A stretch of DNA of 64,000 bases from Candidatus Paceibacter sp. (GTDB taxonomy: Bacteria; Patescibacteriota; Patescibacteriia; S139-126), in NCBI GenBank assembly GCA_020724865.1, contig DYGA01000002.1, positions 12,032-76,031 on the forward strand. The letters are read 5' to 3'. Under the pieces are notes generated by a model. It did no database searches. It had not been told where the DNA came from and saw nothing but the letters and a program-made list of their open reading frames with translations. Both the position numbers and the translations under genes were made by a program. Shown in pieces: positions 43,506 through 51,414 of the stretch (positions are counted from its first letter, which is position 1; every line of letters starts with the position of its first letter).

Positions 43506-44210
43506 TTAAACTTTGCTTTGAGAAAAATAATATCTGATAGTATTGATTATTTCTTTTTTTAAATTAATTTTATTTTTCAGACAGACCAGTAGAGGAATTT
43601 CCGTAAAATTAATTTGTTTGAATGTCTTTATAACTGAACTAGTAGGTGGTTGAAAAAACGCCCATGGATAAGTAGCGGTTGAAGTATCGATTATTAATTT
43701 AAAACGATTTTGTTTTAAATGATCAATAAGTTCATCTTCGGTGTAATTGTTTATCAATACACCGGGATATTTATTTTTAATATTTTTTTCTTCTTGGCCG
43801 CTAAAAGTAGTTATTTGTTCAGCGTAGGACTTAAAATAGATTAAAATTTCCCCATCCTTTTTGATGGCTGCTTGTGAATTGACGGTACCATTTAGGGTTG
43901 GTAGTTCCCACTGATTGATAATAAAGGCATCAAAGCCTTCAATAATCGATTTTAAATTTTGACTGTATTTTTTTTCGGCGTAGACTATTTTTTTGGTGGG
44001 AAATAGCCTAGTTTCTTCAAGAATTTGAAAATTTTTGTAGTAGTTTTGCGAACCTAAACTGATAATTAGCCAGTCAAAGTTTTCGTTTTTTGTTCTTTGA
44101 ATCAGTTCACTTTGGCTTTTGGTTTGTTCCATATATTCCCATGGTAGTAAAGGGGAAATTTTTTTGTTGATTTTCGGTAAGTGGCAAATAATCTTTTTTT
44201 GCTTTTTCAT
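43506..44210 (-). CDS. Orphan hypothetical protein
   Basis: AGGAG SD at 44223-44219; TTGACT -35 at 44276-44271. Confidence 0.7.
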   Translation of the reverse strand: MKKQKKIICHLPKINKKISPLLPWEYMEQTKSQSELIQRTKNENFDWLIISLGSQNYYKNFQILEETRLFPTKKIVYAEKKYSQNLKSIIEGFDAFIINQWELPTLNGTVNSQAAIKKDGEILIYFKSYAEQITTFSGQEEKNIKNKYPGVLINNYTEDELIDHLKQNRFKLIIDTSTATYPWAFFQPPTSSVIKTFKQINFTEIPLLVCLKNKINLKKEIINTIRYYFSQSKV

Positions 44211-44477: not shown

Positions 44478-45245
44478 ATGGTGGAAACAAATGGTAAAAA
44501 GTGTTTATGGCGAGAGCCAAAATACATTTTAATTTTGCTGGGAATATTATTGTTAGCGGGTATAGTTATTGTGGCAATCTTACGTGATCGTATTGTAAAT
44601 CAACCAAATTGGCAGGTCAGTGTAACGGGCAGAGGAACAGTTAGCTATGAACCTGATGTGGCTATTATCACCATGGGTGTACAGGTTGATAAAGTGAATA
44701 AAGCTGACCAAGCTTTGACGCAATTAAATGAAAAAATAAATAATGTTATTAAAGCTGTCGAAGAAGTTGGAGTGACCAAAGAAAATATTAAAACCCAAAA
44801 CTATTCTTTGTATCCTCAGTATGATTGGATAAACAACGTGCAAACTCCAGGTGGTTATACTGCCAGTCAATTATTAATGGTTAAAGTAACAAATTTATCT
44901 GTCAACAAGGATTTGGTTTCCCAAGTAATTGCCGCAGCAACCAAAGCCGGGGTAAATCAAATTCAGGGTGTCAGTTTTGACAGTTCAAATATTGAAGATC
45001 TAAAACAGGAGGCCAGACTTAAGGCAATTGCTGATGCTAAAAAGAAAGCCGGTAGTATTGCTAGTAATTTAGGCGTTCGTTTAGGTAAAGTGATAGGTTG
45101 GTGGGAAAATCCGGTAACTTTACCAGGAATGCCTTATTATAATGAGATGGGCGGTTATGGTGGTGGAGGTAATTCTACTCCCAGTGTTCCCAGTGGCAAT
45201 CAGGAAATCATTATGGATGTTAGTATTAATTATGAAGTCAAATAA
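44478..45245 (+). CDS. SIMPL/DUF541 domain protein
   Basis: VSVTGRGTV...PDVA, AGVNQIQGVSF, ARLKAIADAKKKA; hairpin at 45257-45294. Confidence 0.92.
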   Translation: MVETNGKKCLWREPKYILILLGILLLAGIVIVAILRDRIVNQPNWQVSVTGRGTVSYEPDVAIITMGVQVDKVNKADQALTQLNEKINNVIKAVEEVGVTKENIKTQNYSLYPQYDWINNVQTPGGYTASQLLMVKVTNLSVNKDLVSQVIAAATKAGVNQIQGVSFDSSNIEDLKQEARLKAIADAKKKAGSIASNLGVRLGKVIGWWENPVTLPGMPYYNEMGGYGGGGNSTPSVPSGNQEIIMDVSINYEVK

Positions 45246-45297
45246 AGGTCAATTAATTTAAACTCCCTAAAATTTTATTTTTAGGGAGTTTAAAGTC

Positions 45298-45325
45298 TTG
45301 ACAAATTTTTTTTATTTGTTAAAAT
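45298..45325 (+). promoter_or_regulatory. Sigma70 promoter for the putative ncRNA
   Basis: TTGACA-16-TAAAAT with TG extension. Confidence 0.7.
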
Positions 45326-45342
45326 GTTTAAACATTAAAAAA

Positions 45343-45477
45343 TTAATACTCATTAGGTTCCTAGCACAGTGGTGAAAGCAAAAGCATCCCTCCTTGCTTT
45401 TGACGAGTAACTCTAAGTCAAGGGTTCTAGATTTTTCTAGTTACCTTTGCACTGACTAGGAGCCTAATGAGTATTAA
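45343..45477 (+). ncRNA. Putative structured non-coding RNA of unassigned family
   Basis: 22-bp closing stem with one U-G pair, internal hairpins, promoter upstream, terminator downstream, no plausible ORF. Confidence 0.7.
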
Positions 45478-45504
45478 AAATCCCGCTTAGAGGCGGGTTT
45501 TTTT
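45478..45504. terminator. Bidirectional terminator
   Basis: CCCGCTT-AG-AGGCGGG with T-run on + and A-run upstream. Confidence 0.75.
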
Positions 45505-46079
45505 TATTGATTATTAAAAAGACTTTGGGCTTTAGGTATTCCTTCATTTAGAGCTGTATCCAGAGCAGTGAAAATTTTTTCTTGGGCTTGGCGGATACTA
45601 TTTTGTTCAGCGGCAGTTGGTGGTTTTAAGACATAATTACTGATTTTACCAAAAAATTTAGGCCTACCAATCCCGATACGAAATCGCACAAAATGTTTGT
45701 CACCCAATGCATCTATTATGGAAGCTACCCCATTATGTCCGCCAGCCGAAGTATTGTATGATATTTTTATTTTTCCTGGTGTTAGATCAAGGTCATCATG
45801 AATTACCCAAATATTTTCATTAGCCAATTGATAAAATGATTTTATTTTTTCAACTGCTTGTCCAGATAGATTCATGAAGGTGAGAGGTCTAACTAATAAT
45901 ATTTTTTTATCATCCCAAGTGCCAGAGGTAATTTGTGAAGAAAATTTTTCTTGGGGAGTAAAATCAGGAAAAATATCGGCATGTTTTTTTTGCCAAGCGG
46001 CGATAACCTGCCAACCTAAGTTATGTCTAGTGAGTTCATATTTTTTTTCTGGATTGCCCAGACCAAAAATCGCAATCAT
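45504..46079 (-). CDS. pth: Peptidyl-tRNA hydrolase
   Basis: GLGNP, TRHNLG, FMNLSG, HDDLD, GGHNG. Confidence 0.96.
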   Translation of the reverse strand: MIAIFGLGNPEKKYELTRHNLGWQVIAAWQKKHADIFPDFTPQEKFSSQITSGTWDDKKILLVRPLTFMNLSGQAVEKIKSFYQLANENIWVIHDDLDLTPGKIKISYNTSAGGHNGVASIIDALGDKHFVRFRIGIGRPKFFGKISNYVLKPPTAAEQNSIRQAQEKIFTALDTALNEGIPKAQSLFNNQ

Positions 46080-46122
46080 TTTATAATTTAAAATTTATAA
46101 TTTTGTTTACTATTTTCTAGTT

Positions 46123-47487
46123 TTATTTTACTGAAGTAATAAAAAGCCGCAATGGTGTTCCCTGAAAATCAAATTCTTTGCGCAAATTATTTTCGATAAA
46201 ACGTAAATAAGAACCGTGTAATGATTTTTTATATTTGATAGTGATTTGAAAGGTCGGGGGATTAACGCCAACCTGTTTAAGATGATAAATGTAGGGGTGT
46301 CCTGCTCCTTTGCCTCGAGCCGGCGGATGTTTGCTGATTATTTTTTTTAAGAATTTTTGTAAAGCACTGTCAGAAATTTTTGTAAACCTTTTATTGTAAA
46401 TTTCAATTGCTTGGTCTAGCATCGTATGAGTGCGTTGTTTGGTAAGGGCAGAAGTAAAAATTATCGGTGCCCAGGTTAGATGAGGGAAAGTATTATAAAT
46501 ATATTTTGTATAAGTATTAATAGTAGTTTCATCCTTATCAGGCACAAGATCCCATTTATTAGCTACAATCAGAATGCTGTTGCCACTTTTGACTGCATGT
46601 TCAGTTAAGTGTCTATCTTGAAAAGTTAGAGGCTCTGATATGTCTAAAATTAACAAAGTTATATCTGAATTTGCTATTTTGTGTAAAGTTTGGTCAATAC
46701 TAAATTTTTCTAAGCGGTCACTTTTTTGCGCTTGGCGTCTGATGCCGGCTGTATCGGTTAAAATCAAATTATGCTCTTTGTATTGAACAGCAATATCTTG
46801 AGCGCCTCTGGTTGTATGAGCTTGGCTGGAAACAATTTGTTTTTCAAAACCTAAAATTGAGTTGATTAATGAGGATTTGCCCACATTAGGTTTGCCAATA
46901 ATAGCTAGACGAATAGTTGATTCTTTTTTTATATTTTGATCTTTGATATTTTTACCGGTCGGTAAAAATTCAACAATCGCATCAAGTAAATTGCCTGTCC
47001 CTATGCCATTGACTCCAGAAACTGGAAAAATTTTATCAATGCCGAGTTCTGACCAATCAAGTATAGCTGAATGCCATTTTTTGGCATTATCAAGTTTTGT
47101 TATTACCAAAAAACAAGGTCGGCCAATTTTTTTAATTATTTTAAAAACATCATAATCTTCAGCTACTAAACCAGTTTTACCATCTACTACCATTAGTATT
47201 AGTTTAGCGTTCTTGGCAGCGACTAATGTTTTTTCATAGATTTGTTTGCTAAAGACTTGTTGTTTGTCAGTACTAATACCGCCAGTGTCAATTAAGGTAA
47301 ATTTTTTACCGTTCCATTCGATATCATTTTCTTGAGAATCTCTGGTAGTTCCAGCAAGCGGTGAAATTAAAGCCGCGGGAGTTTCGGTTAAACGGTTAAA
47401 AAGAGTGGATTTGCCAACGTTAGTTCTACCCAACATAACCACTTTGGGCAGTTGTTTTTTTCTAGGTGATGAAGTTATTTTATCCAT
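46123..47487 (-). CDS. der: Ribosome biogenesis GTPase Der
   Basis: Two G domains (GRTNVGKS, GKPNVGKS) and C-terminal KH-like domain. Confidence 0.96.
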   Translation of the reverse strand: MDKITSSPRKKQLPKVVMLGRTNVGKSTLFNRLTETPAALISPLAGTTRDSQENDIEWNGKKFTLIDTGGISTDKQQVFSKQIYEKTLVAAKNAKLILMVVDGKTGLVAEDYDVFKIIKKIGRPCFLVITKLDNAKKWHSAILDWSELGIDKIFPVSGVNGIGTGNLLDAIVEFLPTGKNIKDQNIKKESTIRLAIIGKPNVGKSSLINSILGFEKQIVSSQAHTTRGAQDIAVQYKEHNLILTDTAGIRRQAQKSDRLEKFSIDQTLHKIANSDITLLILDISEPLTFQDRHLTEHAVKSGNSILIVANKWDLVPDKDETTINTYTKYIYNTFPHLTWAPIIFTSALTKQRTHTMLDQAIEIYNKRFTKISDSALQKFLKKIISKHPPARGKGAGHPYIYHLKQVGVNPPTFQITIKYKKSLHGSYLRFIENNLRKEFDFQGTPLRLFITSVK

Positions 47488-51320: not shown

Positions 51321-51414
51321 TGATTTTAGTTTGACAAATACCGGTAAAAAGTGTTATACTTAAAATAATTAATTAATTTAAAAAATAATTCTTTAGAAAG
51401 GAAGGTGTATTTAT

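Follow-up and report, generated by a model that had tools for sequence, protein, structure and literature searches.

The window analysed here, a stretch of 64,000 nucleotides of Candidatus Paceibacter sp. DNA, belongs to an 800-kb genome (G000) that is 99.6% complete. A gene for a predicted small RNA lies in it between a SIMPL (DUF541) gene on the forward strand and the peptidyl-tRNA hydrolase gene (pth) on the reverse strand. The following features were assigned at the locus:

44478–45245, + strand: SIMPL (DUF541) gene (PF04402) with its own hairpin at 45260–45291; a local neighbour only
45298–45325, + strand: putative sigma70-type promoter, with the -35 element TTGACA at 45298–45303, TG at 45317–45318 and the -10 element TAAAAT at 45320–45325
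45332–45505, + strand: predicted small RNA transcript of ~170 nt, its start placed from the spacing to the -10 element
45343–45371, + strand: 5' strand of P1, comprising the 22-bp rod (45343–45364) and the CAG(U)G top (45367–45371)
45371–45376, + strand: 5' strand of P2a (GGU) and the GAA of the GAA/AGUA internal loop; its GC/YR pairs covary
45379–45402, + strand: P2b hairpin CAAAAGCA/UGCUUUUG, pair probability 0.96–0.98
45387–45394, + strand: loop UCCCUCCU with the invariant anti-Shine-Dalgarno (anti-SD) core CCUCCU at 45389–45394
45406–45418, + strand: AGUA of the internal loop, 3' strand of P2a (45410–45412) and AAG junction, assigned by homologue comparison
45419–45449, + strand: P3 hairpin with a U-rich tetraloop (45419–45425/45443–45449 plus 45427–45431/45436–45440), adjoining P1
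45450–45477, + strand: 3' strand of P1, with 45456–45477 pairing with the rod and CACUG (45450–45454) with 45367–45371
45482–45505, + strand: intrinsic terminator (hairpin 45482–45497 and U8), usable by pth on the - strand too
45504–46079, - strand: pth (PF01195), convergent, the conserved downstream neighbour of the RNA gene

The promoter (TTGACA-16-TAAAAT with TG) scored 11/12 and was the best of 12 sites within 44500–46300; like the terminator, it had already been recognised in the first-pass annotation of this DNA. Promoters scoring at least 10/12 were present upstream of 54 of 100 homologues (see below), compared with 1 and 2 in two controls, and terminator-like elements were found downstream of 34 of 100, compared with 5 in the control; it is from this conservation alone that we infer transcription of the gene. 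The sense strand gave the more stable fold in 94 of 101 homologues. The only RNA run with shared words (X1) yielded one contig, at 45047–45242 (the 3' end of SIMPL, 95–99% alike), and none on the RNA gene, while runs X2, X4 and X6 yielded no contig at the locus. In the genus-level cluster to which G000 belongs, SIMPL and a 234-aa SD-led ORF with no Pfam match (43506–44210, - strand) are inserted together between mfd and the RNA. A linkage of the RNA to SIMPL was rejected, as no RNA match lay near SIMPL outside this cluster and just 4 of 101 members had SIMPL upstream. A short reading frame that follows AGGAGGG on the - strand was discarded as well, the distance to its start not being constant on inspection.

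The RNA of G000 folded with a minimum free energy of -79.9 kcal/mol (z = -10.5), a stability reached by none of 200 shuffled sequences, and stems of at least 20 bp spanning 60–250 nt occur only six times in the whole 800-kb genome. Pair probabilities of the named stems were 0.84–1.0, and that of the outermost pair was 0.39. The 22-bp stem read in the first pass, which holds one U-G pair, its CAGTG/CACTG extension and the hairpin at 45379–45402 were all recovered, P1 overall forming a rod of ~26 bp, and the loop UCCCUCCU was predicted to be unpaired with a probability of 0.98–1.0. A GTAACT/AGTTAC stem that had been considered possible had a pair probability of 0 and is not kept in relatives; the AGUAAC sequence belongs to the P2 arm, and the 3' half forms P3 instead. 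The P2 arm comprises a short GGY/RCC helix (P2a), the GAA/AGUA internal loop, a stem and then the loop, and a conserved AAG leads into P3. We take GAA/AGUA to be a loop-E/S-turn-like signature, and no description of this motif was found in the openly licensed PMC and bioRxiv literature.

BLAST of the locus against 100 relatives gave three true, syntenic homologues, the remaining matches being promoter or terminator noise. A first covariance model, built from the locus and these homologues (four sequences), gave matches in 38 of 150 genomes of the class, one of which, in G065 (L104), was tRNA-like by eye and was dropped as false. With a second model, built from 32 matches, the RNA was found in 84 of the 150 class genomes, in one copy each except for G028 with two. 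Outside the class it was present in 16 of 143 Patescibacteria genomes. The resulting 101 members consist of 31 training rows (one duplicate removed) and 70 held-out sequences (three antisense self-matches removed). A strict pattern scan of contigs from one genome per species returned 43 loci, 42 of them true members, under titles including Kuenenbacteria, Falkowbacteria, Kerfeldbacteria, Doudnabacteria and Parcubacteria. Other loci carried the titles Gammaproteobacteria, Binatia, Acidobacteriaceae and Saccharibacteria; as five of those checked were genomes of 0.6–0.9 Mb, the non-CPR titles are presumably submitter labels.

The position of the gene was strongly conserved: for 91 of 101 members, pth, dprA or mfd was no more than 1.2 kb away. 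A convergent pth followed the RNA in 69, a divergent dprA preceded it in 43, and mfd was the neighbour in 19. Because the covariance model rewards the loop sequence, the surroundings of pth were searched in model-negative genomes (the best 30 of 66 by pth score). Model matches were present beside pth in 4 of the 30, and a loop-blind scan revealed long rods in 18, six of which were CCUCC-tipped (full or simplified members), whereas the loops of the other 12 were short and unrelated, and inspection by eye showed no junction motifs of the family in them. In all, 7 of these 30 genomes hold a member, so that 84 of 150 is a lower bound, and the six CCUCC-tipped rods next to pth suggest that the loop persists longer in evolution than the remainder of the structure. 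In some genomes pth abuts dprA, leaving no room for the RNA. The two copies in G028 (L105/L082) are 1.3 kb apart, and G142 (L210) and G115 (L214) carry tandem simplified rods. In G128 (L188), the usual place of the RNA between pth and dprA is taken by a GC-rich rod of 34 bp whose tip is AT-rich and lacks CCUCC; it may be a repeat element unrelated to the family.

All helices covaried. In two model-fitted alignments, 91.8% and 88.5% of cells paired, compared with 38–50% in slid controls, and 46 of 48 and 48 of 48 pairs showed double changes (the pair count of alignment A5 takes in three antisense rows). Compensatory changes affected 21 of 21 pairs of the P1 rod, and in G005 a G-C pair of P2b was replaced by A-U at both positions. 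When 37 members were aligned with MAFFT, blind to structure, P1, P2a and P3 emerged again, and compensation was seen at 35 of 36 pairs; P2b, which varies in length, was not recovered. P2a is supported by covariation, although the energy model gives it a probability of only 0.01–0.05 in the G000 copy, and P3 is missing from several members. The stand-alone structured RNA with an exposed anti-SD loop that had been proposed is thus upheld by its conservation, covariation and loop exposure, and comparative sequence analysis supports a long covarying rod, a three-way junction and a side arm with an open CCCUCCU loop.

Conservation of the loop among homologues had been named as a check on the original reading, and CCUCCU was indeed kept in 101 of 101 model-found members (CCCUCCU in 91, UCCUCCU in 9 and ACCUCCU in 1), with a mean unpaired probability of 0.84. 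The flanking positions are variable, (C)CCUCCU being followed mostly by A/U. The sole loop change seen, CCCUUCU, occurred in the G058 member (L200:1265–1422, - strand), which has an extended P3 and is inverted relative to pth; this variant can pair with AGGAGG through G-U. The 16S end was readable in 113 of 150 genomes and canonical in 97. Among the 16 non-canonical tails (loci L169–L185, including a second copy in G026), 12 altered the CCUCCU core, reading UCUCCU, ACUCCU, CCUCAU or AUAUCCU, or lacking it in the possibly misbinned G135, a doubtful case because its rpsU keeps a perfect SD and its 16S piece is on a 2.7-kb contig. Nine of these 12 genomes possess the RNA, and in all nine the loop is CCUCCU, including G096 and G145, where the tail reads CCUCAU. 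The loop therefore does not follow the host 16S tail, which weakens the earlier suggestion of an anti-SD mimic if this is taken to mean that the loop copies that tail. In G145, 26 AAGGAGGT-ATG sites persist. The tail of G000 itself is normal, as were all ten readable tails of RNA-bearing genomes outside the class, the phylum sample holding almost no genomes without an anti-SD.

Comparison with known RNAs returned no Rfam 15 family at cut-off for the RNA, window-wide or over 20 homologues, the large-SRP model being covered by the window-wide scans. The tmRNA and RNase P RNA of G000 were found elsewhere above cut-off, so the RNA is neither, and neither an RF00169 match nor an Ffh M domain (PF02978) was detected in G000; the previously noted lack of tmRNA, RNase P, SRP and riboswitch signatures agrees with these separate copies or missing model matches. 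A riboswitch or leader is at odds with the convergent pth downstream of 69 of 101 members, co-oriented ORFs being a minority. The RNA resembles 6S RNA (RF00013) in size, in its long closing stem and in being a stand-alone single-copy gene, but it lacks the two-sided central bubble and the long apical stem, its 3' strand running continuously from P3 into P1 with covarying pairs. No RF00013 match was obtained in G000 at E <= 10. The only 6S-like RNA in 101 class genomes scanned was that of G006 (L035:1501–1666, G006:C1:198048–198213, + strand), full-length with a sub-threshold 34.6 bits, and this genome carries the RNA studied here as well.

Among RNAs with exposed C-rich loops, RsaE/RoxS and RNAIII of Firmicutes use unpaired C-rich seeds (UCCC) to cover SD sites and have no long closing rod. 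The present RNA shares the unpaired C-rich seed and matches no Rfam model of these RNAs. The cuckoo family of Alphaproteobacteria (RSs0680/CcsR, alpha-r14, NfeR1) is described, in the available text of PMC4615179, as two to four adjacent hairpins each with CCUCCUCCC, often in multiple copies, and the available text on NfeR1 reports Hfq-independent silencing of many mRNAs through its anti-SD loops (10.1101/2025.11.14.688489). As far as these descriptions extend, the likeness lies in an invariant anti-SD loop on a variable stem, an own promoter and terminator and conserved synteny, and the Hfq-independence of NfeR1 parallels the action without Hfq proposed below. In contrast to the cuckoo RNAs so described, which occur in SD-using genomes, the RNA here is single-copy in SD-poor genomes and has a single loop, (C)CCUCCU instead of CCUCCUCCC, borne by an arm that contains GAA/AGUA and branches at a three-way junction from a closing rod of ~26 bp; a few members (G115, G142 and G028) are tandem rods. 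The Bacteroidetes system of anti-SD occlusion is similar in its SD-poor genome, normal anti-SD and strong rpsU SD, and differs in being, in the source text available, a protein-rRNA circuit in which no small RNA is described. No description of the RNA was found in the openly licensed PMC and bioRxiv literature, including the available text of PMC8321541 and PMC10783764; subscription papers or supplements of motif catalogues could hold one. We conclude that the RNA represents a new family, built on a new scaffold and placed in an unusual setting, distinct from the cuckoo RNAs, RsaE, 6S, SRP, tmRNA and RNase P RNA. By analogy, it most plausibly works like anti-SD sRNAs.

The SD-led genes of G000 are mostly lineage-specific and non-core. 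They number 45 of 704 (~6%), the other ~94% of genes starting without an SD; with the first ATG taken as start, which makes the count a rough one, 36 of 708 long ORFs had AGGAG in their SD window and one had it in the control window. Homologues in 540 kb of three other families were found for 4 of 45 SD-led genes and for 180 of 659 other genes (Fisher p = 0.005; p = 0.01 when limited to proteins <300 aa), and GC3 was the same in both groups. That SD-led genes are a mostly non-core minority lends indirect support to the regulator of the SD-led class that had been suggested. By duplex energy, the best partners of the loop were short lineage-specific, secreted or pilin-like genes (identities from N-termini), and SD-led core genes, namely rpoB, rplB and tuf (by N-termini) and rpsU, mostly paired more weakly. 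In 19 of 101 members, G000 not being one of them, the RNA is directly followed by a co-oriented SD-led ORF, compared with 7, 3 and 0 for the other three orientations; the 19 include L076, L085, L087, L102, L107, L110, L112, L130, L131, L144 and L147. The co-oriented ORFs look unrelated by eye, as if the 3' end of the RNA gene were an insertion hot spot.

Several further leads on SD usage were not retained. A tuf SD co-evolving with the changed tail of G096 was dismissed since tuf of G000 has the same UGAGGU, a pattern search for a shifted SD in G096 and G145 gave nothing clear, and class-wide AGGAG-ATG counts were set aside, their reversed-pattern control being unmatched in codon composition. 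At G000:C1:116677 (+ strand), near tRNA-like sequences, we observed an ORF of 32 aa that is histone-like, rich in Lys/Ala and equipped with a perfect SD.

The start of rpsU (PF01165; 51395–51417, + strand) carries a long SD (51395–51407) before a probable CUG start codon. A strong rpsU SD was present in 37 of 40 class genomes, compared with 11% of the genes of G000, often with GUG, UUG or CUG starts, and the three exceptions with a weak or absent SD (G096, G024 and G100) all have altered 16S tails. It appears that rpsU follows the ribosome and the RNA loop does not, as weak rpsU SDs coincide with altered tails while the loop stays CCUCCU. According to the available text of PMC7797042 and PMC13000453, occlusion of the anti-SD by bS21 in Bacteroidetes is marked by a strong rpsU SD, and by analogy the pattern in this class can be read as the signature of such autoregulation. 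Presence of the RNA did not separate genomes by rpsU SD (24/25 vs 13/15).

The reading that we favour, with slightly better than even confidence, is a trans-acting anti-SD repressor, encoded once on the chromosome, that damps SD-led accessory genes, similar to the cuckoo RNA NfeR1 and differently built. It draws on the gene and its fold, the invariant exposed seed, the independence of this seed from the host tail and the non-core SD-led minority. The rod would give the RNA a long lifetime, and the GAA/AGUA motif would stiffen the P2 arm, which would present the loop. The loop would pair without Hfq (not found in G000) with AGGAG(G) ribosome-binding sites in competition with the 16S tail. Since ~94% of genes start without an SD, the RNA could act as a class-wide brake on the SD-led minority (genes that are lineage-specific, encode secreted or pilin-like proteins or were probably acquired recently) and would have little effect on core translation. 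Invariance of the loop while all stems turn over argues for anti-SD repression. No conserved extended pairing with any mRNA was found, and as the loop flanks are variable, specificity would rest on 6–7 nt. Against selective repression, core genes with SDs (rpoB, rplB, tuf and rpsU) would be hit too, and the conserved junction and ~26-bp rod exceed the needs of a base-pairing sRNA and may point to protein binding.

Protein binding is central to a decoy model, which we regard as unlikely, in which the loop would mimic the 16S 3' tail and titrate a tail-binding protein, either bS21 in a Bacteroidia-like anti-SD pocket or Era, so that ribosomal anti-SDs are freed or 30S maturation is tuned. The rpsU signature and the elaborate, conserved fold would suit such a decoy, but the 5' part of the tail has no counterpart in the loop, the positions before CCUCCU being variable, the loop does not follow changes of the tail, and the CCCUUCU variant is more easily explained by pairing than by sequence read-out. 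Moreover, matches to the RNA and to bS21 did not co-occur (56/28/40/26, p = 0.49, a weak test for a 55-aa protein), and full-length Era was not found in four of five RNA-bearing genomes (G000, G005, G022 and G089, which gave only Der halves; G031 has one), leaving links of the RNA to either protein unsupported. The possible occlusion of the anti-SD could also be accommodated by a surrogate anti-SD, where the loop pairs with SD-led mRNAs and the rod or junction docks on ribosomes with a buried or altered anti-SD, promoting translation of the accessory class. Retention of the RNA where the 16S core has changed while canonical SDs persist (G145), the excess of SD-led ORFs downstream on the same strand and the lack of an anti-SD in about half of Parcubacteria (available text of PMC9297842) are in line with this activator. 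Its probability is nevertheless low, given the normal anti-SD of all ten readable out-of-class carriers and the failure to identify a ribosome-binding element in the RNA. We know of no precedent for a surrogate anti-SD RNA.

The same 19 downstream ORFs would be expected if the RNA were a cis-acting leader or cassette promoter whose loop sequesters the SD of the gene right behind it. However, a terminator or the opposite-strand pth follows the RNA in G000 and most members, where the loop is equally conserved, which makes this very improbable in general and disfavours it for the G000 copy. Least credible of all is a divergent 6S/Ms1-like RNA binding RNA polymerase, which the first-pass annotation had also considered: its size and closing stem, the absence of a detected 6S RNA from G000 and 100 of 101 class genomes, and a loose likeness in the order of motifs (CCC-ACCU...CAAGGG) to the RF00013 consensus are outweighed by the fully paired 3' strand without a symmetrical bubble, the missing model match, the separate 6S-like gene of G006 and the loss of P3 in several members while the loop stays. 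A different partner or role is quite unlikely, be it pairing with the pre-16S trailer, antisense cleavage of pth-dprA read-through, phage or host mRNAs, or an RNP of another kind. The trailer usually carries a complementary AGGGAG/AAGGAG, but this site is absent in G145 and G135 while the loop persists; the RNA is antisense between co-oriented pth and dprA or mfd, but such a role needs no fixed loop; and a foreign target would suit a loop that stays constant whatever the host tail, but one strict pattern found no copy of the RNA in viral contigs.

More than half of the genomes of the class keep this RNA once, in one place and with a fixed seed despite their stripped gene content, a conservation resembling that of a housekeeping RNA, and G000 retains it with no detected Hfq, Ffh, small SRP RNA or 6S RNA. 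In an SD-poor genome, an anti-SD RNA would no longer be promiscuous and might single out an entire class of genes by their start signal. It is conceivable, if rather doubtful, that translation in these bacteria is organised in two tiers, an SD-less core and SD-led accessory or incoming genes, with the RNA as the switch, silencing any message with a canonical SD or acting as a trans anti-SD for tails buried by bS21. In the silencing version of this two-tier model, the RNA would act regardless of gene, as a translation-level filter on foreign DNA encoded head-to-head with the DNA-uptake gene dprA. The RNA bears on why Patescibacteria keep an anti-SD that few of their genes use.
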